From IMG/VR virus record IMGVR_UViG_3300037325_000356, positions 1-63,906 of that record: a stretch of DNA of 63,906 nucleotides, one strand, 5' to 3'. Origin of the DNA: a virus. Lineage: Duplodnaviria; Caudoviricetes. The position numbers and the translations under genes are program-made. The first letter of the stretch is position 1, and each line of letters opens with the position of its first letter. Shown piece by piece: positions 1,890-62,023 of the stretch. Under the pieces are notes generated by a model that searched no databases, was not told the origin of the DNA, and worked only from the letters and a program-made list of their open reading frames with translations.

Positions 1890-2375
1890 TTAAGGACTTG
1901 TTAAGTTTGTGACAAAAAAGCTAGGGGCGGGCGGCGTAATAGGTGACATCAGAATCGTATCAATACCCGGTAAAGTGTCATCGTCTGGGAAGTCGAAAGC
2001 ATAGGGAGAAATAGAGGCTTTATATTCAATTTTTGCCAGCCATCGAGTATCCTGTACCATTAACTGCCATTCCATATTTGTTAATACGCCCGCGGCATAA
2101 TCAGGTAGGAATAAATGCAACAATCCCCACACACGCTCGACAACAGGGAAACAAGCCGTAGCAGTCTTAACCCTACTCGGTAATAGTACGTTTACTTCTA
2201 TTGAGACTGAGTTAATATTGCCGCCATTTATGAACACTACGACATCACCCGCAGTCTCTTGTTTCATTCTTTCTGTGTCATCGGGTAAACCTCGCACCAA
2301 CACGCCGCCCGGTTGAAGCAACTCTCGCACTGGTTGCAGTTTGTTTAAAATACTCAACTCTATTTCTTTCAGCAT
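1890..2375 (-). CDS. Putative tail completion/terminator protein (Gp37-like)
   Basis: Size and the MLKEIELSILNKL N-terminus resemble Mu Gp37-type proteins; tentative. Confidence 0.4.
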   Translation of the reverse strand: MLKEIELSILNKLQPVRELLQPGGVLVRGLPDDTERMKQETAGDVVVFINGGNINSVSIEVNVLLPSRVKTATACFPVVERVWGLLHLFLPDYAAGVLTNMEWQLMVQDTRWLAKIEYKASISPYAFDFPDDDTLPGIDTILMSPITPPAPSFFVTNLTSP

Positions 2376-2547
2376 ATTTTTAAAAGATTGTCTGACTTGA
2401 TTGTAGTGGCTAGCCTGTCTCAAAGCAGCATTATTTGAGGTATTAAAGCCCTGCTATACTCTGTTCTTTGGGTTTTCCCGTACAGCACCTTCAGACGGCT
2501 TTAAAACCCCATAGAGTTCCTTCCGATCGCCGGGCACGTCATTCTTC

Positions 2548-2693
2548 AGAAGCGAGGTTAGAAGTCCTTCACACTTACTGTAGAGTCTGTCGTTTGAATA
2601 GTCTTACTATTAGTAAGAGATCCAAACGACAGACACATCAGGTAGGACTCGCTTCTATTCTACCTTTTACCTGACTCAATACATGAGTCAGGT
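2548..2693 (+). repeat. Hairpin element copy 2 with tail
   Basis: AGAAGCGAG...GTCTGTCGTTT...CTTACTATTAGTAAG...AAACGACAGAC...CTCGCTTCT, then CCTGACTC-AATACAT-GAGTCAGG. Confidence 0.95.
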
Positions 2694-2761
2694 TTTGGTA
2701 AAATTGAAGGGAAAAAGTGCCACCCGCCCGGTAGGTTCCAGCCGCCCGATCGGGAGCATCG

Positions 2762-3085
2762 AGCGTTCAGACAACCGTTCAGCCGTGTTCAGCCGTGAAC
2801 GCATCTGAACGGTTACAGGGAGGGGCGTTCAGGCGTTCAGACGAGCGTTCAGAAAATTTAATGAGAGGCTTTTAGAGGCGTTCAGACACTCTGAACGACT
2901 GAATAATCGAACACCGTGCGATCGGTTCTAACTGGCACAGTGCGCGACGTTCAGACGTTCAGACAAGAGTTCAGCCGTGTTCAGCCGTGAACGCATCTAA
3001 ACGGTACAGTGCGCGAGGTTCAGGCGTTCAGACAAGCGTTCAGACTAGCGTTCAATACTCTGAACGCCTGAATAATCGAATTCAA
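2762..3085 (+). repeat. GCGTTCAG/CTGAACG array A
   Basis: Dense CGTTCAG units at about 7-13 nt spacing; homologous to arrays B-D. Confidence 0.9.
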
Positions 3086-3136
3086 CCCACCCGATCGGTT
3101 CGATACGCACACCCTTTGTGTCAATGGTTTGTATTC

Positions 3137-3285
3137 AGAAGCGAGGTTAGAAGTCCTCACCGTTACTGTAGAGTCTGTATTTTAATTTGTCTTACTATTA
3201 GTAAGAGATCCAAACGACAAGCACAGCAGGTAGAACTCGCTTCTAGTCTCCCTTTTACCTGACTCAATACATGAGTCAGGTTTTG
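3137..3285 (+). repeat. Hairpin element copy 3
   Basis: Same nested palindrome and tail. Confidence 0.95.
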
Positions 3286-3359
3286 GTAAAATCGAAGGGA
3301 AAAAGTGCCACCCGCCCGGTAAGTTAATCTTTGAGAATACCGTTTAAACCAGGAAATAA

Positions 3360-3758
3360 ATGTTTGAGAATGCAGAGACAGCATTAGCCACGGCTAAACG
3401 CTGGGGAAATATTACAGATCCGGCGTTCGATCCTGACTTAATATTGCTCCTAGCCGCATCAAAAGCTATCGAAAGTTTCCGCCCTTTTGCGGTGGCGGCG
3501 TTCTGGATTGCAACAGGTGCTACCACTACCAGAGGTTTACTTTATGAGGCGACAGGTGAAGCTAAATTTTTAAAACCGGAAGAGTTAGATCAACTAATTC
3601 TGCGGCTGTTAGCGCTCCAAGAGGGATTTGATTCTAACTTAACAGGCATTCCCGGTGGGTGGGATCTAACAGGATTGAAAGCGACATTGTGCAAAGGCTG
3701 CACGTCTGAAGAATCGATCAATCCTATCCCTTTTAGTTATGGGTTGCTGACTATTTAA
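3360..3758 (+). CDS. Hypothetical protein, possible head-tail adaptor
   Basis: Clean 132-aa ORF followed by a terminator; function guessed from size and helical character. Confidence 0.45.
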   Translation: MFENAETALATAKRWGNITDPAFDPDLILLLAASKAIESFRPFAVAAFWIATGATTTRGLLYEATGEAKFLKPEELDQLILRLLALQEGFDSNLTGIPGGWDLTGLKATLCKGCTSEESINPIPFSYGLLTI

Positions 3759-3766
3759 TTCCACAC

Positions 3767-3795
3767 AAAACCCGCTAATTTTTATTAGCGGGTTC
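3767..3795. terminator. Bidirectional intrinsic terminator
   Basis: AACCCGCTAAT...ATTAGCGGGTT between convergent genes. Related A-tract/CCCG...CGGG hairpins recur near 130, 875, 5960, 9595, 12886, 15680, 21454, 22507, 25975, 26800, 28456, 35415, 45305, 60705 and 62510. Confidence 0.8.
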
Positions 3796-3813
3796 TGTGT
3801 TTCAGATCTTCGA

Positions 3814-4176
3814 TCAATACCCTACAAAATAGGCATCATCTTCTGGATCTATGTCGTCATCATCATCATCAAATAGATCGTCATCATCACCAAATAGATC
3901 GTCATCATCACCAAATAGATCGTCAGTTTCTGCTAAAAGATCGTCATCATCACCAAGTAAGTCGTCATCATCTTCAAGTAATTCGTCATCATCTTCAAGT
4001 AATTCGTCATCATCTTCAAGTAAGTCGTCATCGGACTCGGACTCGTCACCAAAAAGATCGTCGTCATTGTCATTAAATAAAGATTGCAATTCTTCTTGTT
4101 CTTGCACTTCATCCAGAACCCATAAAGCATAACTGTTTTTATCCGCAGTTTTTTCGATCTTGCTATTTTTAGGCAT
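3814..4176 (-). CDS. Extremely acidic heptad-repeat protein (DDDDLFG/EDDDELL)
   Basis: GA-rich leader and ATG start; 21-bp tandem repeats at about 3850-4070. Confidence 0.7.
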   Translation of the reverse strand: MPKNSKIEKTADKNSYALWVLDEVQEQEELQSLFNDNDDDLFGDESESDDDLLEDDDELLEDDDELLEDDDDLLGDDDDLLAETDDLFGDDDDLFGDDDDLFDDDDDDIDPEDDAYFVGY

Positions 4177-4222
4177 TGTCTTTCTCTCTCTCTCTCTGTT
4201 TTTTTACCGGTACTTGATTGTC

Positions 4223-4555
4223 TCAGCTATTAATCAGCAGCGATCTAATTTGCTGACAAACCCAGATATAAACTTCCACATTGCACCACATCGCAAAGTC
4301 GATCGCTACATCTTTATTTCCCCAAATCCCCCGCTCTTCTGGGGTTCCATGCCGTACCACTTCCATTACAGGATCACCCGTCACAGTTGAAAGCACAAAT
4401 AGGGAATCGCACTTGTCTTTGAGTCTTGGATAACTGTCTGCTTTTTTACCTACCGCTTCTGCTAAATCCGACAAGCTCACCCACAAATCACCATCTCGGT
4501 TATCAAATCGAATCGCATTCGTACCATTAAGTTTTAAAAACGTTAAATCAGACAT
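4223..4555 (-). CDS. KilA-N domain protein
   Basis: WVSLSDLA...GIWGNKDVAIDFAMWCN; TTGACA promoter at 4613-4618. Confidence 0.8.
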   Translation of the reverse strand: MSDLTFLKLNGTNAIRFDNRDGDLWVSLSDLAEAVGKKADSYPRLKDKCDSLFVLSTVTGDPVMEVVRHGTPEERGIWGNKDVAIDFAMWCNVEVYIWVCQQIRSLLINS

Positions 4556-4680
4556 TTTTTGCTCTCTCTCTTGTTTTCCTGTTTCTTTAAGCTATCACAC
4601 CGCAATAGTTGATGTCAATGGTTTGTGCAAGTTAATTTTAAGAAACCCTACACGGCTGGCAATGTATAGGTTTCAGAAAT

Positions 4681-5502
4681 CTAACCAACTACAGAAGACA
4701 ACAGGATAATGTCATCAGGTAGGACTTGCGGTGCTGTTGCCCAATCGGTTGAGGCAATAATGAGATTAGAAGCGGGTAATGTCAGATTAGCTTCATAGAC
4801 ACCGCTAACAGCTTGCAAGGCTCCTATTATCTGCTTAACGACAACATCTTTTCCCATACTTGCTCCGACGCTCTGAATGTACGTGTTAAGTGCCGCAGCG
4901 CACCGTTCTTTGATCGTGTTTATATCAGCCGTTGAATAAGTAGTAATTGTTGCGGCTATCTGAAAATTGATAATTGTGGGAGCTTCTACAGTAAAAACTA
5001 CCAATGTTGGCTTCACTTTGGGATCTGTCAATGCTGCTAGAACTGTTGCTATCAAACCAGCGGACGGTAAACCAGTCTTAGTTATAAATTTCACCGAGAC
5101 GGACGGTGCTACTGTCAAAATAACAGCAACATCGGTAATACTTGGATCAACTCGTTTTACTATTGTTTCAATTTGCTCTTTAGTGCCCGCTGTTGTAAAG
5201 GCTGATGGAGCACTCATTACTCGCAGTCTATAATCATCGTCTGTCTCATTTAACCGTCGGGAAAGACCAAATAACACGCCGATTTCGTCTAGTCTTTCCC
5301 CTAGCGCAAAGTTGATCAATCCGCCTTCAGCCGATCGCTGGATTGATCCGTTTTGCAATCCTGACAGAAATGCTATAACCTCTAACATTATATTTTCTGG
5401 GGTTCCCACAGCGGCGGGTTCATTCCCCAAGTCTTCCCACTTCTGGAATGCTGCTGTCCGTAGTGATGCTGCCGTCTGTCCTGTTAAATTTGGTGCTACC
5501 AT
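4681..5502 (-). CDS. Baseplate J/gp47 family protein
   Basis: ALGERLDEIG...RRLNETDDDYRLR...FTTAGT motif typical of P2 gpJ. Confidence 0.9.
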   Translation of the reverse strand: MVAPNLTGQTAASLRTAAFQKWEDLGNEPAAVGTPENIMLEVIAFLSGLQNGSIQRSAEGGLINFALGERLDEIGVLFGLSRRLNETDDDYRLRVMSAPSAFTTAGTKEQIETIVKRVDPSITDVAVILTVAPSVSVKFITKTGLPSAGLIATVLAALTDPKVKPTLVVFTVEAPTIINFQIAATITTYSTADINTIKERCAAALNTYIQSVGASMGKDVVVKQIIGALQAVSGVYEANLTLPASNLIIASTDWATAPQVLPDDIILLSSVVG

Positions 5503-5661
5503 CTGTTCTCTTCTGACTTTGTTGCCTCTTATCATAGCCTTAAGGCCACATCGCAACCTCAAAACGTAGGTTTTCCCCGACAGCACCTTCAGACGGCTTT
5601 AACCGGGAAAATGAGTCTTAATCTCTCACCGATCGCCCCGCCCGGTGCACCGTCAATTTTT

Positions 5662-5810
5662 AGAAGCGAGTTCACAATTCCTTCACCTTTACTGTAGAGT
5701 CTGTCGTTTAAGTTGTCTTACTATTAGTAAGAGATCCAAACGACAAGCCCATCAGGTAGCACTCGCCTCTAGTCTCCCTTTTACCTGACTCAATACATGA
5801 GTCAGGTTTT
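5662..5810 (+). repeat. Hairpin element copy 4
   Basis: Same nested palindrome and tail. Confidence 0.95.
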
Positions 5811-5824
5811 GGTAAAATCGAAGG

Positions 5825-5952
5825 CGTGATCGCTCTGAGACTGACGGCAAGAGAGAAAAGTTGGTAGACCTTGACAAGCTTTTTCCACGATCCATTTATG
5901 TGCATAGCGTGATTGTAATGAAGAAGCTAGCCCGATCGCCCGTTGGGAGCCC
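5825..5952 (+). repeat. Linker repeat L2 (second copy 21079-21207)
   Basis: About 128 bp, near-identical, and both copies follow an element. Confidence 0.9.
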
Positions 5953-6007
5953 AAAAAAGAAACCCGCGCGGGGCGGGTTCATTGCGGGCGATCGGGGCGG
6001 GTAGAAA

Positions 6008-6724
6008 TTAAGAGTAAAAGTCGATCGCGTCAGTGACTGCTAACAGCGGTTCCAGCCCTCTGTCTATCAACCTCACGGCGTGACCTTCAATTCTGTCTAT
6101 CAACACCAAAGATGCGGCACTATGGGTACTTCTCAGTTCATTTCTGTCGCACGATCGCTCTGCACAAAGTTTGGCTGCTGTTTTCCCGAATAGCGATCGG
6201 TTGATTTTGTCTGAGCAATTCGAGTACACGAACTTTCGGTAATTCTCCGAGACTTCATTTTGCTTGCCCAAATATTCCTTTATTGCGTCGGTCAAAGTGC
6301 GACGGGTAATTTTCCCGGCTAGTCGGGCGGTTAGATATTCTTGCCGATTGTGCTTGTCAAATTCAATCCCAAATGCGTCTGAGAATAACTGGGTGAGTGC
6401 TAGTCCGACTAATGCAAGGTTTAACTCAAGAGCTTTTTTGTTTCCCCTTGAGGACAAAACTACAATGACTTTCTCAAACTCCAAAAGTGTAACACAGTTG
6501 ACAGCCTTTGGGTTCAATGTAGTACGCGCTTTGGATAACTGGAAATCCTCACCCAGTATAGCTTTGATGTCTCTTGATGCGTGAACTTTGGATAACTGGA
6601 ATATACTACAAATCTGTGAAACTGCTACCGCATATTCCCCATTATCCTCAAACCTGAGACCTTCTATTTCCAAAGTTCCCATTTTGACGATCGCGATCGT
6701 AGCTTTGCGTGTTAGAATACTCAT
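6008..6724 (-). CDS. Antirepressor-like DNA-binding protein
   Basis: N-terminus is like 908-1630; the C-terminal ~105 aa are nearly identical to 62555-63304. Confidence 0.7.
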   Translation of the reverse strand: MSILTRKATIAIVKMGTLEIEGLRFEDNGEYAVAVSQICSIFQLSKVHASRDIKAILGEDFQLSKARTTLNPKAVNCVTLLEFEKVIVVLSSRGNKKALELNLALVGLALTQLFSDAFGIEFDKHNRQEYLTARLAGKITRRTLTDAIKEYLGKQNEVSENYRKFVYSNCSDKINRSLFGKTAAKLCAERSCDRNELRSTHSAASLVLIDRIEGHAVRLIDRGLEPLLAVTDAIDFYS

Positions 6725-6827
6725 TAGTTGACCTGCTTTTTAGGTTTACTCATGCACCGGAAATTCGAGTTTCGCGGTGCTTTTCTATTGTAGCATAATA
6801 TCAAAGGTTTGCACTAAAATGCGGTGA

Positions 6828-7320
6828 CGCTCAAACTCCACAAGTGTAACACAGTTGACAGCCTTTGGGTGCAATGTAGTACGCGCTTTGAGGAATTGGA
6901 AACCCGCTCCTAGTATAGCCTTGAGGTCTCTTGATGCGTTCTTTATGAGGAACGAGAATATACTACAAATCTGTGAAACTGCTATCGCATAGTTCTGCCT
7001 TGTACCTTTATTGCGATCGGTTGTCACTCGACATAACTGAAAACCCGCACCCAATATACCTTTCAGCCATTTTGGTGCCCTAATTGGTATAACTGAAAAC
7101 AGCGTCGCGACTTGCTGTTGTGCCCTTCTACCGCTTCTCTGTTTGTCTTGTCTTGATTAAGCCAGAATCCTCTGCCAGTATAACTTTGATGTCTCTTTTG
7201 ACTTGATTAGTGATTAAGCCAAAAAGGCTAGCGACTTGCTGTTGTGCGATCGCATATTCCCCATTGTCATCAAATCGGAGACCTTCAAACTCAAAACTCC
7301 CGATACTGACTGTGATGCGT
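6828..7320 (-). pseudogene. Tandem array of three silent variant segments of the 6008-6724 N-domain
   Basis: Translations: AIAQQQVASLFGLITNQVKRDIKVILAEDSGLIKTR / AQQQVATLFSVIPIRAPKWLKGILGAGFQLCRVTT / AIAVSQICSIFSFLIKNASRDLKAILGAGFQFLKARTTLHPKAVNCVTLVEFE. Confidence 0.85.
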
Positions 7321-7375
7321 TTCTCGACAAAAAAAATCCCCCCAAAGTTGGAGAGATAGCCGAATATTAAATCGA

Positions 7376-7606
7376 TTAGTCGCTTAATAGTTTGGTCGTT
7401 TGGTCGTTTGGTCGTTTGTTCACCAGTGCTAACTGTTCGCCTTTGCTTAATTCCTCAAATTGCACAACTATGGGCTTGTATGTATCCGCGCTGGTAATTT
7501 CTACTTCCCCGTCGCTAAACCAGCGATAAACCGTTTCTGTGTTGCCTAGCAGAAAGGTGGAATATCGAGATAAAAGTTTAGGAGATTCTTTCGTTTGACT
7601 TTGCAT
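7376..7606 (-). CDS. Hypothetical protein
   Basis: Co-oriented small ORF in an operon-like run. Confidence 0.5.
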   Translation of the reverse strand: MQSQTKESPKLLSRYSTFLLGNTETVYRWFSDGEVEITSADTYKPIVVQFEELSKGEQLALVNKRPNDQTTKLLSD

Positions 7607-7611
7607 TTCAA

Positions 7612-7917
7612 TCAATCCTCTAAACTTAAAAAAGTGGCTATTGATGGTTTTGGTTCCGGTTGTGAATAGGTAGACCAATTCCAACCTGGAGGCGTACCGG
7701 GATCTGGATGGTTAGGATCGTCTGAATCGGTGACATCAAAACTGATCAAAAATGTCGGATGTCCTCTCTCGTTTTCGCCTAACTCCGACAGCAACTGTCC
7801 ATCGGTGGTGAATGGCAAAATGTCCTTTTCAGCAAACCCGTAACCAGAGTTAGGCTCTGTTTGTGTTAGGATCAGTAGAACACGCCCCGTCTCGTTTTTC
7901 GTTGTGTTTGGATTCAT
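7612..7917 (-). CDS. Hypothetical protein
   Basis: Co-oriented small ORF. Confidence 0.55.
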   Translation of the reverse strand: MNPNTTKNETGRVLLILTQTEPNSGYGFAEKDILPFTTDGQLLSELGENERGHPTFLISFDVTDSDDPNHPDPGTPPGWNWSTYSQPEPKPSIATFLSLED

Positions 7918-7987
7918 TGTTTTTTCTAGTTTCAGATACATTTTACCCGTTGAAGGAAAGGGGAATAGATCCCCTTTCTACTATCGA

Positions 7988-9067
7988 TTAGAAGGGCATA
8001 TCGGTAAAATCAGCCTCTAACTTTGCAGGCGCTTCTACCGCAAGTTCGGGTGAAGGAGAGCCACTACCACTAATAGCTCGTTGTGGAGGTACAGCAGCCG
8101 ATCGCAAGGTTTCAGGCCGTCTATGCTCATCAATCATTTGGATTGAGGCTTTGACGGTGAAATGCGAATTATATGGTCGGATATCGCCTATCAATAATAT
8201 CAACCGCCGACCTTTAAAGACAGAACCAAGCTTGTTAAAACAGTTGGTCAAATCTTTGTTGGTCGTATAACTCCCCTCCATGTCAACACCGTTAGCGTCT
8301 TGCAGCCATAGCTCCCAATTCGGGGGGAATTTGGCATTCTCAGGTTGTTTAATCTTGGCATAATCGCGAACATACCAGAAGCTATTCTCTCCCAATATGT
8401 GCAGTTTCTTTCGATTGTTTGTGGAGCCTAGCACCTGCAAAAGTAAATCAGAAACCGCTTGAACACCTGCCTTTTCTTGCGGTGTAGCTCCGACAGTTTC
8501 GAGTAAATGCTCGATCAATTCCTTGCTGACTGTGATGTTGTCATCACCTAAAATCTCTGCGATAACCTCGCGACGTTTTTTGATCAGTGGAACTTCGTAT
8601 ATGACCTTGACAGCAGGATTGTTTGGAGTGAACGCGATAGAGACAGAGACAGAGGTACTCTCATCTGAATTCTGATAAATCTTCTCGATCAACCGTCCGG
8701 TAATGTTTCCTACTTTGAAAGTTTTAGCGACAACATTAAATTCGAGTTCGTATTTGTTATCACCGCTTACAAGCCATAACGACTTATCGCCTCCCATGAT
8801 TCCCGGTGCATAAACTGCCGTAACCATATCCCCTTGGACTTTCACCCTGAGCAATGAAGTCTCATCTACTTTTCCGTCATCGCCAGCAGCCTCTAGTAAG
8901 AAGCTGTAAAGATCCGCTCCCTCGTTAATATCCCCCAAACAGAGAGCGTCTGCATGGACTGGATGCCAACCGTCCGCCGGGTACTGTCGAATCGTACACG
9001 AGGGAAACATTGAACCTGCAAATACAATTGTCTTAGTAGGAATGAAGCCATTGCCTTTGATTGCCAT
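7988..9067 (-). CDS. Putative ssDNA-binding or annealing protein
   Basis: Ends in a flexible linker plus EADFTDMPF, like the SSB acidic DxPF tail; TTGACA promoter near 9178. Confidence 0.5.
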   Translation of the reverse strand: MAIKGNGFIPTKTIVFAGSMFPSCTIRQYPADGWHPVHADALCLGDINEGADLYSFLLEAAGDDGKVDETSLLRVKVQGDMVTAVYAPGIMGGDKSLWLVSGDNKYELEFNVVAKTFKVGNITGRLIEKIYQNSDESTSVSVSIAFTPNNPAVKVIYEVPLIKKRREVIAEILGDDNITVSKELIEHLLETVGATPQEKAGVQAVSDLLLQVLGSTNNRKKLHILGENSFWYVRDYAKIKQPENAKFPPNWELWLQDANGVDMEGSYTTNKDLTNCFNKLGSVFKGRRLILLIGDIRPYNSHFTVKASIQMIDEHRRPETLRSAAVPPQRAISGSGSPSPELAVEAPAKLEADFTDMPF

Positions 9068-9329
9068 GATATGTCCTGTTCTTTTCTTCTGGGTGATCTG
9101 TTTTTTCTTGCTGGTTTTGCAGTGCTCATCAAATGGGTTTTTTGTGTCTTTCTCAACCATGTATACATACTAACTGATGTCAACCCTATCTGTCAAGGGT
9201 TTCTATAAAGTATTTTTGAAAAAGGCTGGAAGTGCTGCGGGGTATAGATGTGGGTAACAAATTGGGTGCCAGGCGATCGCTATCGGAGTATAGAGATGCC
9301 TATCGCCGGGCCCGATCGGTCAAGACAGA

Positions 9330-9439
9330 CTCATCTAGCATTATTTTAGAGCTTGGTTAACTGCCTATTAACTGTCTGGCAGTCAAACATTTTTACTACA
9401 ATCGTACTATGCACATAGCTAGAACCTAGCAAAAATGCT
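9330..9439 (+). repeat. Linker repeat L1 (also 60450-60549; partial 29796-29863 and 63685-63753)
   Basis: TGTCTGGCAGTCAAACATTTT...CCTAGCAAAAATGCT always abuts the left end of an element. Confidence 0.9.
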
Positions 9440-9580
9440 AGAAGCGAGTTCACAATTCCTTCACCTTTACTGTAGAGTCTGTCGTTTAAGTTGTCTTACT
9501 ATTAGTAAGAGATCCGAACGACAGACACATCAATTAGAACTCGCTTCTAGCATACCTTTTACCTGACTCTAGTATTGAGG
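9440..9580 (+). repeat. Hairpin element copy 5
   Basis: Same nested palindrome. Confidence 0.95.
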
Positions 9581-9641
9581 ACTTTTGCCAAGAAAAAACC
9601 CGGCGATCGGGAGATCGTCGGGTTGTTTTAGGCAGGTGTGT

Positions 9642-9866
9642 CTAGTCAAAAAAGAAAAAGGATTTGACCGTCTTTTCTAATTCTGGGGTGCGATCGTACA
9701 CATTGACTTGATCGTGCCCGTGTTGAGCTGTCCCCAAAGGTTCGTGATGTTGGTGAAACCGCTCTACCCATTTGCCTAGTTTGGACTCTTCACCGGGCTT
9801 TAAGGAATACCCCAAATCCTGTGCTAAAACGGCTGGGAAGACTGCTGTCGCTGCTGTTAAGGTCAT
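9642..9866 (-). CDS. Stand-alone C-terminal domain of the 12937-13638 family
   Basis: AVLAQDLGYSLKPGEESKLGKWV...QVNVYDRTPEL is shared; its 5' leader and MTLT start match the KilA-N gene 21504-22283. Confidence 0.7.
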   Translation of the reverse strand: MTLTAATAVFPAVLAQDLGYSLKPGEESKLGKWVERFHQHHEPLGTAQHGHDQVNVYDRTPELEKTVKSFFFFD

Positions 9867-9943
9867 CTTTTTCTCTCTCGTTACTGTTCTCTTTAAAAGA
9901 TAGCACACCCAAACACTTTATGTCAATACTTTTTTAATTCTTC

Positions 9944-10085
9944 AGAAGCGAGGTTAGAATTCCTCACCGTTACGGTAGAGTCTGTCGTTTTTACCTTCTT
10001 ACTATTAGTAAGAGATCCGAACGACAAACTCATCAATTGGAACTCGCTTCTAGTCAGCATTATACCTAACTCTAGTATTGTGGAC
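9944..10085 (+). repeat. Hairpin element copy 6
   Basis: Same nested palindrome. Confidence 0.95.
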
Positions 10086-10147
10086 TTTTGGCAAGAAAAA
10101 ACCCGGCGATCGCATCACTTTTGAAACCGTTTGTTTTAGGCAGGTGC

Positions 10148-10243
10148 TACCAAGTCCGCAGCCTCAAACCTATGCCGTGTAATGTTTTGACCTAATTTTG
10201 CCGAATGCAAAGTCCGCACATCGAATGATGCTATACGCCGCCC
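10148..10243 (-). pseudogene. Silent variant segment of 12937-13638
   Basis: SIIRCADF/SAKLGQNITRHRFEAADLV (1-nt frameshift) aligns with SIIDGGDFKSVKLAQTYTEHGLECGDLV. Confidence 0.7.
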
Positions 10244-10319
10244 GTTTCCATAGAAACCATTGACATCTGTCAGGCGGTGAGTTAAAATAGCAGAAAGCGA
10301 GAAAGAGAGAGGAAAAGGG

Positions 10320-10718
10320 ATGAGTTATGAAAACGGTGCGGATAAATATTCAAAACCGGGGAATGTGTACGTCTTTGTCAATTTGAAGCGATGGAAAATA
10401 AAGATCGGATTAACGGGGCGAAAAGTGGAGAGAAGATTAGAAGAAATACAGCAAGACTACGGCAGACAGGTTATGTCTGTGTTCGTCTGTGAGACTTCTA
10501 ATATGTGGAAATTGGAGCAGACGGCACATCGGAAGTTTCGCAAGTACAAATCGCCAGAACCTAAAAACCTGACAGGACAGTCTGAATGGTTCGCACTTTC
10601 ACCGTGTTTAATAATTAAAGTGATTTGTTTCCTGTTTCTTCAGAATAAACGGCTAGAGATTGGCTATCGAATTGAGAAGAGTTGGTGCTTTAAGCTGCTA
10701 AATATGCTAAAAAGATAG
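10320..10718 (+). CDS. T5orf172/GIY-YIG-like domain protein
   Basis: GNVYVF...KIKIGLT...VERRLEEIQ...LEQTAHRKF...SEWF. Confidence 0.85.
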   Translation: MSYENGADKYSKPGNVYVFVNLKRWKIKIGLTGRKVERRLEEIQQDYGRQVMSVFVCETSNMWKLEQTAHRKFRKYKSPEPKNLTGQSEWFALSPCLIIKVICFLFLQNKRLEIGYRIEKSWCFKLLNMLKR

Positions 10719-10774
10719 AGATAAGATCGGGCGTTGAAATACCCGATCTTTTTTGTGTAGCACGGACAAAAACA

Positions 10775-12178: not shown

Positions 12179-12183
12179 GGTTT

Positions 12184-12622: not shown

Positions 12623-12734
12623 TTTGGTCTCTCTCTTTTTTCTCTTGTTCGATCGTAACACATGGTAATACTTTATGTCAACCCTTCCCAAAGCTATTAA
12701 AAATTGAAAGACCGCCCGCCCGATCGGTCAAGAC

Positions 12735-13870: not shown

Positions 13871-13878
13871 GATTTCTG

Positions 13879-52354: not shown

Positions 52355-52389
52355 TTGAAAATCTAAATCACAAATAGGACTCAAAACAA

Positions 52390-52905: not shown

Positions 52906-53888
52906 TGACAAACTTAAACCCGGTCGCAATTTGGACAAATAATCCCCGTCAATTACTCCCTACTGAGTATAACTTTGCTTCAAATTTTAACTCTCAAAAT
53001 CAAGACGTTTTAAACCAAAGCCAGTTTGTTAGAAGTCAACTCCAAAATCTCTCGACAATTTTAAATGCGATCGAATCTAAGAATTTAGAGTTATCAGCAC
53101 TGAATGCTGCTATTGTCTCTGTGAATAATCAATTAAGACTGGCAGATTTGACGCTAGAAAATGACGCAATAGCCGCGCGTGTAGATACAACTGCGGCAGG
53201 TTTTGCAACTATATCAGCAGCTAAACTAAATGCAGAAAATGAAACAACAGCAACAGAATTAGCTATAGGGAATATAACACTAGATACCAAAGTACAACGG
53301 TTAAATCCGCTCCTTACAGAACTAGCAGCACTCGGAAAATTTAATGATCGAAACTTGACTGTTTCCGGCGCTAATTCTTACAATTGGGCAACATATTCGG
53401 GGGTGCGGGTAAGACCTCAAATAGCGTTAGTGATGGAAAATCAAAATCAGGGAAGTAATGGCGGTGCTGTAGTCGCTAATACTTGGGGTAAACGAGAACT
53501 AAATACAATTAAATTCCTAAATGTAGCAAACGGGACGCTAAGCAACAACACTTTAACCTTACCCGCGGGTGATTATGTCGCGATCGGTTTTTCGACTTTT
53601 GCTGGCTGTGCCGCATCTAAAACTAAATTACAAAGAGGGCAAACAACGATCGGATTAGGAGCGTCTGGAAATGGTACAACAGACGGCGGAAATGTAGGAA
53701 GAATAACGAACAATCAAGCTCCTATTTATACTGCCTTCAATTTACAGGAAACAAGCGAGATAAGTTTAGACTTTTTGGCCACAAATAACCCGCCTTCTTT
53801 AAATTCGGCTACGCAAGGAAGAGCGGCAGGCATAGACACAGAGAATTATTCACAACTATTTCTGATTGCTGCAACACCATCTGTTTGA
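52905..53888 (+). CDS. Fibre-like virion protein (paralogue 2 of 3)
   Basis: Coiled coil, LTELAALGKFN, GSNGG...WGKRELNT...TLPAGDY. Confidence 0.65.
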   Translation: MTNLNPVAIWTNNPRQLLPTEYNFASNFNSQNQDVLNQSQFVRSQLQNLSTILNAIESKNLELSALNAAIVSVNNQLRLADLTLENDAIAARVDTTAAGFATISAAKLNAENETTATELAIGNITLDTKVQRLNPLLTELAALGKFNDRNLTVSGANSYNWATYSGVRVRPQIALVMENQNQGSNGGAVVANTWGKRELNTIKFLNVANGTLSNNTLTLPAGDYVAIGFSTFAGCAASKTKLQRGQTTIGLGASGNGTTDGGNVGRITNNQAPIYTAFNLQETSEISLDFLATNNPPSLNSATQGRAAGIDTENYSQLFLIAATPSV

Positions 53889-53897
53889 GTATTTAAT

Positions 53898-56800
53898 ATG
53901 CCTGATCTAAAAATTACAGTGACTGTAGATGATTCTGCTGTATCAGCTTTAGAAGGCAGACTAAGAGGGTTGTCTGGTGCTGCTAGTGGTGTTGGTGGTG
54001 TTGGAGGTTCGGCAACATCTCAGACTCAAAAATTCGGTGAAAGTCTGCAAAGTGTAGGCGGCGCTATGTCAACTTTGGGCGGGTTAACATTAGCAGCAAC
54101 TGCACCCGCAATAGCCGGATTTGGAGCGTCGGCAAAAGCCGCAATTGATTATGAATCCGCACTCGCAGATGTTCAGAAAATTTCAGATTTCAAGGCGGGG
54201 ATGGGTAGCGACTTCTCTAATGGTTTACTCGAATTATCGGCAAGTTTAGGGAGTGTTAACCCTAACGATTTGGCCGCTATATCGGCTGGTATGGTAAGAC
54301 CTGGGCAGAGTGCACAAGACCTGTTATTAGCATCTGAAGCCGTATCGAAAATGGGTGTAGCTTTCAATATGAGTGCGGCAGATTCCGGTAAAGCATTAGG
54401 CAAGTTATCCACAGCTTTTAAAGTGCCTGCACGGGATATGAAAACTTTTGTGGGAGGGCTTAACGAATTATCAAACAAGACAGGGATTGCAGGGAAAGAT
54501 TTAGTTAATTTTATGTCGAGTAGTTCTGAATTAGCGGGTAGAATGCCAGCAACCGACGTAGCGGCAATGGGCACGGCCTTAATTAGCGCGGGTATAGCCT
54601 CAGCTAGAAGCGGGCGATCTATCTCGTCTATATCCTCTAAGTTGATGATGGCTAGCAGCTTATCAAATAAAGCTAAAGCCTCTTTTAAAGATATGGGAGT
54701 AAGTGCTAAAGACTTGGAAGCTGATGTCTCAAAGCGCGGCGCACCGGCTATTGTTGACTTTTTAGAAAAAATCAACAAAATACCGACAGCCGCCAAAAAA
54801 ACCGAGGCATTGAATAACATTTTTGGTGCTGACTTTGCACGAACGGCTGGGGTATTAGCTAATAATTTGGGACAGGTTAGAAGCAACTTGAAAGCAGTTT
54901 CAGATCAGAAAGCGGTAGCCTCGTCAGTTGATAGAGAATATGCAGTCAGGCAAGCAACAACAGCTAACCAATTAAAAACATTTGGTGCAACAGCACAAAG
55001 AGTCGGGATCGCAGTAGGATCGGGGCTTTTGCCTGCTATTAATGACGTGGGAAAGGCGGTTCTGCCGATGGCTAATGAGTTTGCAAAATTTGCTACCGCT
55101 AACCCAGGTATTGTAAAAAATGCTGTAGCGTTTACTGGGGTTGCAGCGGCGGGCGGTTTGGCTTTAAGCGTCGCGGGTAGTCTCGCAACCTCGATCGGCG
55201 CGATCGCCACCGCAGCACCTATTATCGGAGGCGCGGTTGCAGGCATCGGAGGGGCGGTAGTAGGGGCGGGCGGCGCGGTAGTAGGTGCTGGCGTGGCAAT
55301 GGGCACCGCTTTGGTTGGTATCGGATCGGCCGCTGTGAGTGTTGGAGGCGCGGTAGTAGGTGCTGGCGTTTCGATGGGAACCGCTGTTGTTGGAGCGGCA
55401 ACAGGAGCCGCCACACTAGCAGGCAGTTTATTATCAATTCCAGCCGTCGGTTTGGCCGCAGCAACAGTCGCAGGTTTAGGCTTAGGTGTCGCCATCCACA
55501 AAGCGATTAACCCAGCAACCGATCTAAATACTATTATTCCTGATATAGGCTTAGGTGCTAAGCAATCGTGGCAAGATGTCAGCACTGCCGGATCTCAACT
55601 TTGGAGCGATTTAAAACTCGGAGGCAAACAAACATTAACAGATTTAGGAAGCGGTTTCACTTCAGTTAAAGATACTGTTGGATCGGCTTTTACAGGTGTT
55701 ACCGAGTCCGTCGGCTCTGCTTTTACAGGTGCTTTAACAAACGTGACCGGGTTTGTTACTTCGATCGGTACAAGTTTCTCGACTGTCGGAACTACTATCA
55801 GCACAGCTTTTTCTACAGTCGGAACCTCTATTAGCACAGCGTTTACAGGCGCTTTAACAAACGTGACCGGGTTTGTTACTTCGATCGGTACAAGTTTCTC
55901 GACTGTCGGAACTACTATCAGCACAGCCTTTTCTACAGTCGGAACCTCTATTAGCACAATCTTTACAGGATTAGGTTCAACTATTACCGGGTTTGTTACT
56001 TTGATCGGTACAAGTTTCTCGACTGTCGGAACTACTATCACTACAGCCTTTTCTACAGTCGGAACCTCTATTAGCACAATCTTTACAGGATTAGGTTCAA
56101 CTATTACCGGGTTTGTTACTTCGATCGGTACAAGTTTCTCGACTGTCGGAACTACTATCACTACAGCCTTTTCTACAGTCGGAACCTCTATTAGCACAAT
56201 CTTTACAGGATTAGGTTCAACTATTACCGGGTTTGTTACTTCGATCGGTACAAGTTTCTCGACTGTCGGAACTACTATCACTACGGCCTTTTCTACAGTC
56301 GGAACCTCTATTAGCACAATCTTTACAGGATTAGGTTCAACTATTACCGCTTTTGTTACTTCCGTTAGCACTGCATTTTCTACAATCGGAACCTCGATCA
56401 GCACGGCAATGAGTGCCGCAATGACTAGCGTACAATCTGCGGTTTCAGGGATGCAAACAGCCATATCGACTATGGCTTCCAGTATTCAAACAGCTTTTTC
56501 TACAATGGGTACAGCCATCAGTACCGCGATGTCCGGTGCTTTGACTGCCATACAGGCATCTATTACCAGTATTCAAAGCGCGATCTCTGCAATGGCAACC
56601 TCTATGCAGGCTAGCTTTGCTGCTGCGGGTGCGGCCATGCAATCAGGAATGACGGCGGCTGTTGCTGGCGTTCAAGCTGCTTTGACTGGGTTATCTTCAG
56701 CCGCTAGTGCTGCCGGATCAGCTTTAGCGGCCGCTGCAAATTCTGCCGTCGGAGCGTGGCAAGCTTTAGCAGGTGCTATTGGTGCAGCCGTTTCTGCTGC

Positions 56801-57125
56801 ACAGAGCGCCGCTACTGCTGTTGCTGGGGCGGCTAGTAGTGCTGCTAGTGCAGTTGCTGGTATTGCAGGCGGCGGTGCCAAGGGTGTGTCTAGCGGTGCT
56901 AAAGGCTTAGACGCTTCTCCTTCTCCGTTCCCTCGCTATACCGCACCCGGTGGCCTCGGAGGCGGTGCAACTAATATCAATTTCTCACCACAAATCGGAG
57001 TGAATGGCGTTTCCTCTTTCAATGCGAGGGATTTTATCCGCGAATTGCGATCGCATGAATCCGAATTTGCAAACTACCTTAGTAGTCTCACTAACAGACA
57101 AAATCGCTTTAAATATTCCGATTGA
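53898..57125 (+). CDS. Tape measure protein (TP901-like)
   Basis: AAIDYESALADVQK, Ala/Gly-rich, 11/18-residue aromatic periodicity. Confidence 0.95.
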   Translation: MPDLKITVTVDDSAVSALEGRLRGLSGAASGVGGVGGSATSQTQKFGESLQSVGGAMSTLGGLTLAATAPAIAGFGASAKAAIDYESALADVQKISDFKAGMGSDFSNGLLELSASLGSVNPNDLAAISAGMVRPGQSAQDLLLASEAVSKMGVAFNMSAADSGKALGKLSTAFKVPARDMKTFVGGLNELSNKTGIAGKDLVNFMSSSSELAGRMPATDVAAMGTALISAGIASARSGRSISSISSKLMMASSLSNKAKASFKDMGVSAKDLEADVSKRGAPAIVDFLEKINKIPTAAKKTEALNNIFGADFARTAGVLANNLGQVRSNLKAVSDQKAVASSVDREYAVRQATTANQLKTFGATAQRVGIAVGSGLLPAINDVGKAVLPMANEFAKFATANPGIVKNAVAFTGVAAAGGLALSVAGSLATSIGAIATAAPIIGGAVAGIGGAVVGAGGAVVGAGVAMGTALVGIGSAAVSVGGAVVGAGVSMGTAVVGAATGAATLAGSLLSIPAVGLAAATVAGLGLGVAIHKAINPATDLNTIIPDIGLGAKQSWQDVSTAGSQLWSDLKLGGKQTLTDLGSGFTSVKDTVGSAFTGVTESVGSAFTGALTNVTGFVTSIGTSFSTVGTTISTAFSTVGTSISTAFTGALTNVTGFVTSIGTSFSTVGTTISTAFSTVGTSISTIFTGLGSTITGFVTLIGTSFSTVGTTITTAFSTVGTSISTIFTGLGSTITGFVTSIGTSFSTVGTTITTAFSTVGTSISTIFTGLGSTITGFVTSIGTSFSTVGTTITTAFSTVGTSISTIFTGLGSTITAFVTSVSTAFSTIGTSISTAMSAAMTSVQSAVSGMQTAISTMASSIQTAFSTMGTAISTAMSGALTAIQASITSIQSAISAMATSMQASFAAAGAAMQSGMTAAVAGVQAALTGLSSAASAAGSALAAAANSAVGAWQALAGAIGAAVSAAQSAATAVAGAASSAASAVAGIAGGGAKGVSSGAKGLDASPSPFPRYTAPGGLGGGATNINFSPQIGVNGVSSFNARDFIRELRSHESEFANYLSSLTNRQNRFKYSD
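55720..56400 (+). repeat. 120-bp (40-aa) tandem repeat, about 5.5 copies, in the tape measure gene
   Basis: Near-identical sequence every 120 nt. Confidence 0.95.
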
Positions 57126-57130: not shown

Positions 57131-57268
57131 CCAATACATGAGTCGGGTAAAAGGTAGATTAGAAGCGAGTCCTACCTGTAGAGGCTGTCGTTTGGATCTC
57201 TTACTAATAGTAAGAAGGTAAAAACGACAGACTCTACAGTAACGGTGAGGACTTCTAACCTCGCTTCT
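57131..57268 (-). repeat. Hairpin element copy 20 (inverted)
   Basis: Begins about 6 nt after the tape measure stop codon. Confidence 0.95.
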
Positions 57269-59137: not shown

Positions 59138-59141
59138 TGTT

Positions 59142-60302
59142 TTATTCTTGGATAGAGACGACTGCTATTATGTTGATCAACTCACCATGTAATGTTTGGC
59201 TAACGATTTTTACCATCGCCGGATTAAATAACAAATCACAAGTCTCCGCGGTTAGTATACTAACAGCAACCAGAGTGTAATCGAGATTTAACCTGACTGT
59301 ATAACCATCTGTTAGCGCGTCTTTCTTAAATCCCACTTCTTCTGTGAACAAGTCGGACTCATGCTCGATCAATATTTTCTCGGTGTCTTTCTCGAAAGTG
59401 AATTTGATAGTATTACTAACTACCAGCTTATTACTAGGGAGGAGGACTTTTGCTCGTTTGAGTGCTAACATCAGTGCTTTAGGTTCCACCGTGTAGGGAT
59501 TACTAAACGGCAGCGTTAACAGTCGCTCTATAGGCGGATAATTTGACCCGTCATTGAGACGAACTGCAAAAGAAGTATCTTCATGTGCACAGTGAAAGAC
59601 TGCTATAGAATCAGTGAAGTAGATAGCGATTTTCCCCGAAACTTTCAAGAGTTTACAAAGTGATAATACTTTTTGACCCGGTATTAAAACAGAGTAATTC
59701 TTCTCTGGCAGAATTGGGTAAACAACATTAACTGCTTGCCAGCGACTCGATCGCCTGGTATCCGTCCCCATTGTTGTTAGAGTTCGTTCTTCAACATTAA
59801 AGTTGATTTTTGCCGAACAATAACTTTGATTCTCAGCACTCAGAGACGGGTAAACGTTCAGCAATCCCTCACGCAAAACCTCACCTTCTAATTCGATACA
59901 GGTTGACGTTTGAGCGCCGCTCAAAATGTCTTCTGTTAGTGGGTAAAATCCTCTGGCATCTTCTGCACACGGTGATTTCCACTTCGATCGCCCTTGTTTT
60001 ATCAACAATTGCCCTTTATTTGGTGACACCAAATCAATTTCTGATTCTTTGTCTAGTCTTTCGACAATTTGCAAAAACTGAGGAGAAATAACCATCACTC
60101 CATCTGGCAAACTCTCTCCCCAATCTCGATCGCATAGAACTGTCTCGCTCGTTCCGTCAAAACTCGTCAGGGTTACGGTTCCTCCTGTCTTTGATAATTT
60201 AAATCCAGTTAACAGGATTTCTTCTGTAGACCCGCCCTTTGCTCGCTTTTGGCTCATCTTTAGAGCCTCAACGTCCGCTTTTATCTTTTTTACTGCTATC
60301 AT
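59142..60302 (-). CDS. dnaN: DNA polymerase III beta-clamp-like protein
   Basis: 386 aa; LTSFDG, MGTDTRRS, VLIPG, YPPIERLL, LNLDY. Confidence 0.8.
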   Translation of the reverse strand: MIAVKKIKADVEALKMSQKRAKGGSTEEILLTGFKLSKTGGTVTLTSFDGTSETVLCDRDWGESLPDGVMVISPQFLQIVERLDKESEIDLVSPNKGQLLIKQGRSKWKSPCAEDARGFYPLTEDILSGAQTSTCIELEGEVLREGLLNVYPSLSAENQSYCSAKINFNVEERTLTTMGTDTRRSSRWQAVNVVYPILPEKNYSVLIPGQKVLSLCKLLKVSGKIAIYFTDSIAVFHCAHEDTSFAVRLNDGSNYPPIERLLTLPFSNPYTVEPKALMLALKRAKVLLPSNKLVVSNTIKFTFEKDTEKILIEHESDLFTEEVGFKKDALTDGYTVRLNLDYTLVAVSILTAETCDLLFNPAMVKIVSQTLHGELINIIAVVSIQE

Positions 60303-60549
60303 TCACCACCTTTCTTTTTTGCTTCTTTAAGCTATCACGCGACAAAGGTTTATGTCAAGGGTTTCGGTAAAATATTTTTAAAACAGGCTCTAACCTTGAC
60401 CCCATATAGAACTGAGTTAGGAGTGAATGGCCCGATCGGTCAAGACAGACTCATCTAGCATTATTTTAGAGCTTGGTTAACTGTCTGGCAGTCAAACATT
60501 TTTACTACAATCGTACTATGCACATAGCTAGAACCTAGCAAAAATGCTT

Positions 60550-60690
60550 AGAAGCGAGTTCACAATTCCATCACCTTTACTGTTGTGTCTGTCGTTTCTA
60601 CCTTCTTACTATTAGTAAGAGATCCAAACGACAGACACAGCAGCTAGAACTCGCTTCTAATCTAACTTTTACCTGACTCTAGTATTGAGG
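60550..60690 (+). repeat. Hairpin element copy 21
   Basis: Same nested palindrome. Confidence 0.95.
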
Positions 60691-60722
60691 GATTTTGGCA
60701 AGAAAAAACCCGCGCGGGGCGG

Positions 60723-61655
60723 CTAGATTCTGAGAACAGCGATCGCGCCGTAAACTTCGGGTTCACCTGCAATATTAGCGGGTGCTCCTAGCGTGTTTAA
60801 AGCTATTGGGTTTGTGGCTTCAACCATTGTCTCGATCGAGAAACTATTCGCGCTTGAAAGCGTAAACGCCGCCTCAAAATAAGAGAAGCCGTTGAAATCG
60901 TCACCTGACAAGGTGGAAGCGACGTTAGAGCCTTTGTAGATGGTATTTGTAGTTCTATTTACAAATTGAGACTTGAACCGTCCACAGACTGCACAACTGA
61001 TATATCCCCAAACAACGTAAGAGCCCGGTTGTAGCGTGACTCTGCCGTTAGAAAGTCCGATCGAACTGGTACTCTTTACTGTCGTTGTGAAACCTCTTTC
61101 TACCCAAATAGAGGGAGCCGCAGATCCGCCACCTGTACCTGTCGCTGCTTGTATTTGATAGCAAGCTGTCGCCATCCTGTCAGATCCGCTCGGTGAATTG
61201 CTCCAACCAAAAGCCCCATTACTTGTAACTTCTATGACTTTACCCTGTTGCTTTCCTAATGTTACCAACTCCGCAAGCCTAGGGGAAAATTCTAGAACCG
61301 AAACGCCCACTACATACTGATCCGACTCAATCTTTAGGTTTGTTGCGTTAGTTGATAGCGCAGGATATTCTGTCAATCTGATCGGTATTAATTCCTCTAT
61401 TGTTGTTAGTTTCTCTCGTGATTGTTGATTCTGAGTGAAAGTGTTTGTCTGTAAAGTTCTTAATGATTGAAGGCTTGTTAGATAGGCTGTCGCTGCTGTT
61501 ATCTGTACGTTCAAAGCTGCTAAATGTGCAGAGGCCTCTGTAGTTGCATTTTCGATTACTGTCTTGTTTGCGAGATTTAAAGCAGACAGCTCGTTAACTA
61601 TCTGATTGAAATTAGCAGCAAGGTTTGTATCTGTTCTTTCTAACTGGTTAACCAT
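60723..61655 (-). CDS. Fibre-like virion protein (paralogue 3 of 3)
   Basis: LAELVTLGKQQG, GTGGG...WVERGFTT...TLQPGSY, EVYG. Confidence 0.65.
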   Translation of the reverse strand: MVNQLERTDTNLAANFNQIVNELSALNLANKTVIENATTEASAHLAALNVQITAATAYLTSLQSLRTLQTNTFTQNQQSREKLTTIEELIPIRLTEYPALSTNATNLKIESDQYVVGVSVLEFSPRLAELVTLGKQQGKVIEVTSNGAFGWSNSPSGSDRMATACYQIQAATGTGGGSAAPSIWVERGFTTTVKSTSSIGLSNGRVTLQPGSYVVWGYISCAVCGRFKSQFVNRTTNTIYKGSNVASTLSGDDFNGFSYFEAAFTLSSANSFSIETMVEATNPIALNTLGAPANIAGEPEVYGAIAVLRI

Positions 61656-61660
61656 TCTTT

Positions 61661-62023
61661 TTACCTGACTTTTTGTGAAGCGTCTTCTATTAAGTTAACA
61701 TCTATTACCATCCGAGTGATAATTCCGTTTAATTCCTTGCTGTATACTGCATCTATTTTTGCGATGCCGAAAATACCTTCTAGATCGGTTCCCGGTTGCC
61801 CAAAACCAAAACCACGAGCCGTCCCTAAGTCCGCAGCGTCACGCCACAATTTAACCCGCTGTCTTGAATTTGCACCGTTAAAATTCAACCGCAATTTTGC
61901 CGCCCGCGCTTTTCTTCCCAAAAACTGAGAAGACCTAAACCCGGTGATTATATTGTACTCGTCTGCAAATTCGCATGATATTAATTCTTGGTCATGAATT
62001 GTTATCGTTCCAAAAAATGCCAT
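61661..62023 (-). CDS. Tail tube initiator (P2 gpU-like)
   Basis: QFLG...LRLNF...GIFGI...IDVNLIE. Confidence 0.6.
   Translation of the reverse strand: MAFFGTITIHDQELISCEFADEYNIITGFRSSQFLGRKARAAKLRLNFNGANSRQRVKLWRDAADLGTARGFGFGQPGTDLEGIFGIAKIDAVYSKELNGIITRMVIDVNLIEDASQKVR

Follow-up and report, generated by a model that had tools for sequence, protein, structure and literature searches.

Dispersed virion genes and a repeated intergenic palindrome in the genome of an uncultured contractile-tailed phage

Introduction

Tailed phages normally keep their virion genes in one place, a synteny on which annotation tools and classification rely. In P2, Mu and the R-type pyocins, the tail and baseplate genes are contiguous. 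In integrons, the attC sites, imperfect palindromes of ~60–140 nt, lie between gene cassettes, mostly in one orientation. The DNA examined here, a 63,906-nt stretch (the window) that is the entire IMG/VR record IMGVR_UViG_3300037325_000356, comes from an uncultured contractile-tailed phage in which the virion genes are dispersed over both strands and 21 copies of an intergenic imperfect palindrome (the element) are present.

Repeats between phage genes have been described in three other groups. In T4-like phages, PeSL (promoter-early stem-loop) cassettes are small terminator/promoter composites repeated between open reading frames (ORFs); close relatives differ by insertions, deletions and swaps whose ends fall in these repeats, and homologous recombination has been proposed (PMC2839356, PMC4122927). 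Passages of the same reports place PeSLs between conserved blocks of core genes, in hyperplastic regions where non-essential genes abound. Campylobacter group II phages CP21 and CP220 are described, in part of a further report, as having modules separated by repeats (PMC4546147). The Nostoc/Anabaena phages A-1, N-1 and their relatives are cyanobacterial myoviruses of 65–68 kb that, according to two accounts, carry tens of asymmetric intergenic motifs and have a ~30-kb region, inverted between repeats, of which two isomers exist (PMC4916379; bioRxiv 10.64898/2026.02.14.705889).

Virion and packaging genes

The CheckV completeness of the record is 96%, and its terminal 121 nt are identical to positions 9–129, hence the contig closes on itself inside one copy of the repeat. 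The genome is complete and circularly closing, with a length of ~63.8 kb. The 75 ORFs of at least 80 amino acids (aa) were scanned against the Pfam and PHROG hidden Markov model (HMM) libraries, and selected ORFs were followed up using NCBIfam, PDB and profile searches. The recognised virion and packaging genes were found in at least seven blocks over ~57 kb on both strands. The dispersal described in the initial annotation is therefore real, except that one co-linear module, reaching from the head genes to the tape-measure gene, is intact at 47621–57125.

The gene for a J-like baseplate protein (Tri1; 4681–5586, minus strand; Pfam Baseplate_J, E-value 4.7e-20; phrog_6, E 4e-31) is located among non-virion genes only, and its product matches the R2-pyocin protein PA0618 (PDB chain 6u5b_m, E 9.7e-7). 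The gene for the large terminase subunit, TerL (10775–12178, plus strand; Terminase_6N/6C; phrog_979, E 4e-92), is in a block delimited by the element copies at 9944–10051 and 12735–12842. A gene for a T5orf172 (GIY-YIG-like) endonuclease (10320–10718, plus strand; Pfam T5orf172, E 2.6e-11; PHROG endonuclease families) precedes terL by 57 nt. The genome also has a free-standing gene for an HNH endonuclease elsewhere, at 28492–28758. The W/gp25-like baseplate wedge gene (13879–14202, minus strand) was identified by matches to GPW_gp25 (E 5e-9, above the cut-off) and phrog_261/43.

The portal gene (30729–32069, minus strand; Phage_portal_3, E 5.6e-30; phrog_146, E 5e-54) is divergent from a block on the plus strand that begins with an S-like Neck1/tail completion gene (32100–32465; phrog_26, E 9.4e-9). 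Three ORFs of unknown function follow (32462–33925; 37–53% identity in tblastn to a related contig, L006, in which their order is kept), and the block ends with the I-like baseplate gene (Tri2; 33919–34494; Tail_P2_I, E 1e-11; phrog_48, E 9e-16). The six genes J, terL, W, portal, S and I were thus confirmed by HMM matches where the initial annotation had placed them (4.7, 10.8, 13.9, 30.7, 32.1 and 33.9 kb, respectively).

That annotation had also assigned D and X genes at 38–41 kb on the minus strand. The first of these is well supported, as the product of 38391–39755 (minus strand) matches phrog_52 (E 1.4e-21), and a profile of nine homologues matches a chain of the R2-pyocin baseplate (PDB 6u5h_C, E 3.4e-6), consistent with a gpD-like baseplate hub. 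A six-frame search using Pfam Phage_GPD gave 0 matches, despite the PHROG and profile support for the hub, and the AF2 model made from the 9-sequence alignment (pLDDT 46.6) was too poor to use. The C-terminal half of the hub is rich in Gly, Ser and Val. The adjacent gene (39833–41332, minus strand) encodes a 499-aa tail protein with an N-terminal domain that weakly resembles the LysM domain of X (Phage_tail_X, E 0.0047; phrog_46 baseplate hub, E 1.4e-5). A gene for a CyRepA1-family replication protein stops 4 nt before the start of this X-like gene, placing a replication gene immediately before tail genes. Downstream of the hub gene, a 146-aa ORF (37948–38388, minus strand) is neither X-like nor V-like and has only three short homologues; it had no match in Pfam, PHROGs or NCBIfam, and nothing was retrieved from the ESM Atlas.

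The head-tail module (47621–57125, plus strand) encodes, in order, a protease, a cement protein, the major capsid protein, two small ORFs, the sheath, the tube, a 327-aa ORF in the position of the chaperone, and the tape measure, with matches to DUF2213/phrog_530, Phage_cement, phrog_264, phrog_23, Phage_tube and PhageMin_Tail/phrog_28. The tape-measure gene includes about seven tandem 120-nt repeats (55626–56465), which are 74–98% identical to the reference copy; no other exact repeats in this genome exceed 127 nt. The ORF at 46589–47224 (minus strand), previously proposed to encode the chaperone, had no match in Pfam, PHROGs or NCBIfam, and the assignment is unsupported.

A gpU gene had been proposed at 61.7 kb. 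The ORF in question (61661–62155, minus strand) is a possible gpU/tail-terminator-like gene, with 13 of 30 matches by ESM features in Phage_P2_GpU clusters (score 0.93, recognition just below threshold), and comparison of its AF2 model (pLDDT 50.1) using Foldseek gave rows to tail terminator/cap proteins at E-values of 0.02 or more. No Foldseek match was obtained at E≤0.001, and there was no Pfam or PDB sequence match, thus the resemblance is weak.

In agreement with the initial annotation, no gpV was recognised: PF04717 gave 0 matches at E≤10 in six frames, and no PHROG spike family was found among the 75 ORFs. Neither a tail fibre nor a small terminase was recognised in the Pfam and PHROG scans of the same ORFs. 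A gpV-like spike may simply have gone unrecognised, and the spike and fibres are probably among the ORFs lacking a family match (about 40 of 75, tallied by eye from the scans) or fused to the hub. That the C-terminal half of the hub, with its Gly/Ser/Val repeats, carries a fused spike is speculation.

The palindromic element

An invariant 21-mer occurs 22 times in the window and did not occur in any of 100 shuffles. Allowing for the overlap of the contig ends, the 22 occurrences represent 21 copies of the element, 16 in one orientation and five in the other. The core of the element is an imperfect palindrome of 108–112 nt made up of an outer stem (AGAAGCGAG / CTCGCTTCT), an inner stem and an apical hairpin. 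The same two sequences form terminal inverted repeats of 9–12 nt (AGAAGCGAG ... CTCGCTTCT), with no variation in the 5' arm and two variable positions in the 3' arm. The 21-nt apical segment is invariant in 21 of 21 aligned copies, and 23 predicted base pairs are conserved. The copies are strongly mosaic: the four-gamete test fails for 217 of 351 informative site pairs (Rm at least 11).

Copies of the element adjoin the 5' end of J, and the 3' ends of W, I and the tape-measure gene. The cores concerned lie 76 nt upstream of the start of J (5662–5770), 41 nt past the stop of W (13731–13838), 97 nt past the stop of I and before an endolysin gene (34591–34698), and on the minus strand 36 nt past the tape-measure stop (57161–57268), where an element had correctly been noted before. 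Two further plus-strand copies form the left and right borders of the terL block (coordinates above), and another forms the left border of the portal block (29864–29971). The remaining copies on the plus strand are at 2548–2656, 3137–3244, 9440–9548, 20354–20461, 20914–21025, 21299–21410, 22356–22463, 37080–37187, 60550–60658 and 63754–63862, the last of which runs on into positions 9–129 at the overlap of the contig ends. Those on the minus strand are at 25015–25126, 26044–26151, 45000–45107 and 45372–45480, and the last is, in inverted orientation, exactly identical to the terminal copy over at least 99 nt.

Copies are present at 17 of 70 gene junctions, about 11 of the 17 (counted by eye) being between co-directional genes. 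For 17 of the 21 copies, the nearest gene 5' of the element reads away from it, although three of these genes are more than 700 nt distant with other copies between.

Promoter-like and terminator-like sites, identified as consensus matches in a scan of 1–20 kb, were found close to several copies. Three of the five best promoter-like sites on the minus strand are within ~55 nt of a copy: 13718–13689 (11/12) beside the copy near W, and 12681–12652 and 9926–9897 beside the two that border the terL block. Terminator-like hairpins, also on the minus strand, are located on the opposite side of four copies (153–133, 5980–5960, 9617–9604 and 12906–12892). A GTCAA-type box, equivalent to a TTGAC -35 box on the opposite strand, is 8–22 nt from the core in 12 of the 20 copies that could be scored. 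These matches suggest an intergenic unit that would consist, along the genes, of a terminator-like hairpin, the palindrome and a promoter-like site.

No Rfam family was found for the element, and no tRNA was found either. A blastn search of the phage collection with the element and its flanks gave no match, and the exact 21-mer was absent from the genomes of 185,579 species, IMG/VR and the metagenome set.

Gene order in relatives

Homologues of the portal protein with 56–76% identity were found in public assemblies. Single-protein scans of IMG/VR using the portal or sheath revealed no closer relatives, and TerL led to only three short, distant contigs. A search using a portal alignment found nothing in IMG/VR or the 185,579 species' genomes, and in the metagenome set found two short ENA contigs, L005 (4.2 kb) and L006 (6.6 kb). 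These low-coverage short-read contigs, which encode a portal 58% identical to that in the window, were used to compare gene order.

In both contigs, the portal gene is divergent from the block containing Neck1, the three ORFs and I, as it is in the window, at 37–65% aa identity, and this arrangement is therefore inherited. TerL was not found in either contig. Softer evidence that the two genes are apart is that the sizes of 13 portal-bearing contigs match no longest contig of the 14 closest clusters of TerL homologues (at least 46% identity). In S-CBS4, a distant cultured relative by its portal, TerL is beside the portal and the head genes are 5 kb further. Homologues of the portal and the D-like hub occur together on contigs of 35,986, 19,306 and 17,690 bp, and further long contigs from relatives measure 43,622 and 34,717 bp.

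The genes beyond the portal differ. The window has a 178-aa ORF in this position, L005 has a homologue of the window gene at 3360–3758, and L006 has a KilA-N-related gene followed by an endolysin gene and a homologue of 26835–27407. In the window the endolysin gene follows the block on the side of I, but its homologue in L006 is on the portal side. The palindrome is present in a diverged form at all block junctions seen in L005 and L006; its 5' end and inner stem are the same, the apical hairpin is different, and the outer stem is longer and still pairs. The two contigs share 99.65% identity over 2,876 nt and are unrelated from a point inside the element, with different genes beyond.

Origin of the dispersed gene order

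The explanation that we favour, and to which we would give about an even chance, is that self-contained transcription units have been shuffled by recombination between the repeats. The genome would then be made up of ~17 short units, most of them separated by a composite intergenic cassette that, judged from consensus scans and orientation, would comprise on the gene-sense strand a terminator-like hairpin, the 108–112-nt palindrome and a sigma-70-like promoter into the next gene. With its own start and stop signals in every unit, the phage would not need its virion genes to share one late operon. Homologous recombination among the 21 dispersed copies could have excised, re-inserted and inverted units, direct copies leading to deletion or to circle formation and re-insertion, and inverted copies to inversions. 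An ancestral chain of tape measure, X–D, W, J and I would have been broken in this way and terL parted from the portal gene, part of the present order being already fixed in the clade. The recombination step is inferred from the one breakpoint between relatives, the mosaic copies and the paths that the repeats permit. The element-driven shuffling that had been proposed initially finds partial support in the breakpoint inside the element, in the mosaicism, in the diverged copies at the block junctions of L005 and L006, and in the copies beside J, W, I and the tape-measure gene.

Several observations weigh against this explanation. Element copies are at 4 of 14 edges of virion blocks compared with 17 of 70 junctions overall, hence there is no enrichment, and the gene order is, to judge from the conserved portal/neck/I block, at least partly old and stable. 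The breakpoint between L005 and L006 could be an assembly switch between copies, as these are low-coverage short-read contigs. The orientation rule is broken by the copies starting at 34591, 45000, 45372 and 57161. Among the copies within the genome, no compensatory changes were seen in the 23 predicted pairs, and a stem position that is T·G in some copies is C·A in others, so that neither strand is favoured and the wobble pairs show neither the strand of action nor whether the palindrome acts as DNA or RNA. Promoter-like sites (45 compared with 29.4 in shuffles) and terminator-like sites (32 compared with 20.2) were scored by consensus only. Finally, k=31 contigs from four public runs all end at every element copy in 1–20,000, and no join is spanned.

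A serious rival, though a rather improbable one in our view, is that the scattered order is old and stable and that the element is purely regulatory (an operator, stoperator, insulator or terminator-promoter unit) and has moved no genes. The arrangement of the portal, Neck1 and I, and a TerL that is not beside the portal, are common to relatives with 58% portal identity, as this rival would predict, and the frequency of the element at the edges of virion blocks is not raised. The bias in orientation relative to the downstream gene (17 of 21) is also what would be expected of a regulatory site, and part of one report reads the 43 and 21 intergenic motifs of Nostoc phages A-1 and N-1 as promoters/stoperators (PMC4916379). 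However, two near-identical contigs that part ways exactly from inside the element, an endolysin cassette that is on different sides in the window and L006, and the strong mosaicism of the copies speak against a purely regulatory role.

An assembly artefact, in which wrong paths were taken through the 21 repeats and the true order is conventional, is unlikely. The repeats do offer opportunities for such errors, as exact repeats of at least 55 nt are found in 48 stretches and of at least 99 nt in seven, no element is bridged by any independent contig, and the contig begins and ends in a repeat to which an inverted copy at 45.3 kb is nearly identical. Inversion of the 45-kb arc between these inverted copies was considered from the coordinates, and no conventional order results. 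Joints reported in the public-run contigs were rejected, as their sides extend 20–73 nt inside repeats and they are explained by copies from beyond the 20-kb stretch that mapped as two pieces; they are evidence neither for nor against any join.

However, at k=127 only the tandem repeat of the tape-measure gene is left, and exact repeats of the element are no longer than 144 nt, therefore 150-nt reads or read pairs span each copy. The orientation of the repeats also limits the orders that could be reached. Relative to the direction of the element, terL and the genes from Neck1 to I are sense, whereas J, W, portal and the head-tail module are antisense, so no re-ordering consistent with the repeats places I on the strand of W and J, and no W–J–I operon can be formed. 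The tape-measure and X genes cannot be joined because the CyRepA1 gene is between the X–D genes and the nearest repeat. No virion gene adjoins terL, J or W within its own repeat-free block, and all three blocks are found as one error-free contig each in run X1, where depth is flat at ~33 in repeat-free bins. The terL block (9997–12742) is a Logan contig found as one record in X1 and as two abutting records in X2. The independent ENA contigs also have the same portal neighbourhood with no TerL.

The path from J through an element to W is permitted by the repeat orientation, a further point in favour of an artefact, and in the contig four small units, one with terL, are between them. Under the shuffling explanation, these look like an insertion of repeat-bounded units into an ancestral W–J junction.

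It is similarly doubtful that the element is a selfish one, resembling a miniature inverted-repeat transposable element (MITE) or of homing type, that was spread by an enzyme and invaded the intergenic sites of an already rearranged genome. The terminal inverted repeats, the 21 copies and the invariant apical segment would fit an element of this kind, and the T5orf172, HNH, KilA-N and Bro-N proteins encoded by the phage are typical of selfish phage DNA. However, no target-site duplication was visible on inspection of the core ends of the 21 aligned copies, and no transposase or recombinase was detected in the ORF scans or in six-frame searches using PF00589 and PF01797 (0 matches each; the PF00589 control search was positive in 14 of 14 genomes). 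The absence of the 21-mer from the genome and metagenome collections searched is also against it, and the diverged form conserved at corresponding sites in relatives is more suggestive of inheritance than of a recent invasion.

Very improbable, in our estimate, is a dedicated recombination system that would recognise the hairpin at the palindrome and be encoded by an unknown or multi-copy DNA-binding phage protein. The invariant 21-nt tip would then be the recognition element while the stems are mosaic, and the genome would be an integron-like array of exchangeable, self-expressed cassettes, which a population could reshuffle, essential virion genes included.

The suggestion in the initial annotation that the spike, and perhaps other virion genes, are on a missing or separate segment was prompted by the lack of a recognised gpV, to which the tail fibre and small terminase can be added, but it is extremely improbable given the 121-nt overlap of the ends, the CheckV estimate, the many ORFs without a family match, among which unrecognised virion genes are expected, and the hub repeats that could, speculatively, hold a fused spike.

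Host and occurrence

The octamer GCGATCGC, which we take to be the cyanobacterial HIP1 signature, occurs 29 times in the whole window compared with 0.5 expected. The CyRepA1-family replication protein (1,119 aa; 41336–44695, minus strand) was identified by NCBIfam NF042913 (224.5 bits, cut-off 200), and it gave 127 plasmid matches, for which the organisms given were cyanobacterial genera. As the octamer excess, the CyRepA1-family protein and the plasmid matches all point to cyanobacteria, the host is probably a cyanobacterium of salt lakes. Part of the genome is present in nine listed public runs, eight of which are labelled salt lake metagenome, and at least half of the sampled words were found in five of the nine.

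CGATCG is also frequent in the window (158 occurrences compared with 11 expected), and two methyltransferases, Dam-type (35479–36291) and Dcm-type (22544–23608), were identified using Pfam.

Cultured phages are distant. For TerL, the best match is an archaeal Methanoculleus virus (36% identity), the best matches for the portal and sheath have 26% and at most 30% identity, respectively, and the major capsid protein had no match among cultured phages by tblastn. Of the TerL homologues listed at less than 56% identity, most align only to the N-terminal ATPase half (48–73% query coverage).

Iteron-like arrays and regulator paralogues

Four arrays of the iteron-like motif CGTTCAG were found, with 13 sites at 2764–3066 (plus strand), 14 mostly inverted sites at 14928–15390 (minus strand), 13 sites at 20568–20859 (plus strand) and 10 sites at 37295–37688 (plus strand). 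They account for 50 of the 54 CGTTCAG sites in the genome and are themselves 220-nt dispersed repeats. The arrays look like iterons or operator arrays. CyRepA1, the lack of an integrase, several antirepressor-like genes and the iteron-like arrays might indicate a phage-plasmid.

Three paralogous genes (172–840, 6008–6724 and 62555–63337) encode proteins with a common C-terminal domain (phrog_2657, 'transcriptional regulator'), and each adjoins a copy of the element. Fragments of genes of this type are present at 6785–7054 and 63404–63745, and deletion variants of 622 and 265 nt within 6644–7267 were seen in runs X3 and X4. The ORF at 3814–4176 contains a 21-nt tandem repeat (3836–4045) encoding an acidic Asp/Glu-rich stretch, and one run carries a form that is one 21-nt unit shorter.

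Comparison with known systems

The likeness to P2, Mu and the R-type pyocins is in the proteins, with homologues here of W (gp25), J (PA0618-like), I, a D-like hub, an X-like LysM protein, the sheath, the tube and the tape measure. The arrangement differs, as W, J and I are far apart (13.9, 4.7 and 33.9 kb) on two strands, the X–D genes follow a replication gene and no gpV was found. A small myovirus with the terminase, portal and three baseplate genes in separate units indicates that the constraint on synteny can be lifted and, if the order is right, it would be a natural system for asking what keeps late operons together. Synteny-based annotation or binning would mis-handle the clade, and the repeats would fragment short-read assemblies.

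Like attC sites, the elements are imperfect palindromes between gene units and are mostly in one orientation. In contrast to integrons, there is no tyrosine recombinase here (PF00589, as above), the sequence and not the structure alone is conserved, and the units have promoter-like sites. Terminal inverted repeats are shared with MITEs, which differ in the target-site duplication and transposase that were not found in this genome. The motifs in the A-1/N-1 group are, in the sections of those accounts, based on a conserved region of 11 bp, unlike the ~110-nt palindromes here, and no A-1 or N-1 record was among the matches listed for TerL, sheath or portal by tblastn. The genomes of CP21 and CP220, as far as part of that report describes them, are 180 kb in size and contain four large modules along with long repeat regions, whereas the genome here is 64 kb with ~17 small units and 21 short palindromic repeats.

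PeSL cassettes are the closest parallel in that the difference between L005 and L006 ends in a repeat, one case in low-coverage contigs. The promoter-like and terminator-like sites beside several copies, as consensus matches, may be a second likeness. However, the repeats here border terL, J, W, I and the tape-measure gene and, in contrast to what passages on PeSLs describe, are not confined to non-essential regions, and the repeat itself is a 108–112-nt palindrome with a 21-nt invariant tip. If the favoured explanation is true, the repeat-mediated modular shuffling that T4-like phages show in their accessory regions would extend to core structural genes. The involvement of core virion genes and a long palindrome with an invariant tip distinguish this genome from the PeSL and CP21/CP220 precedents.

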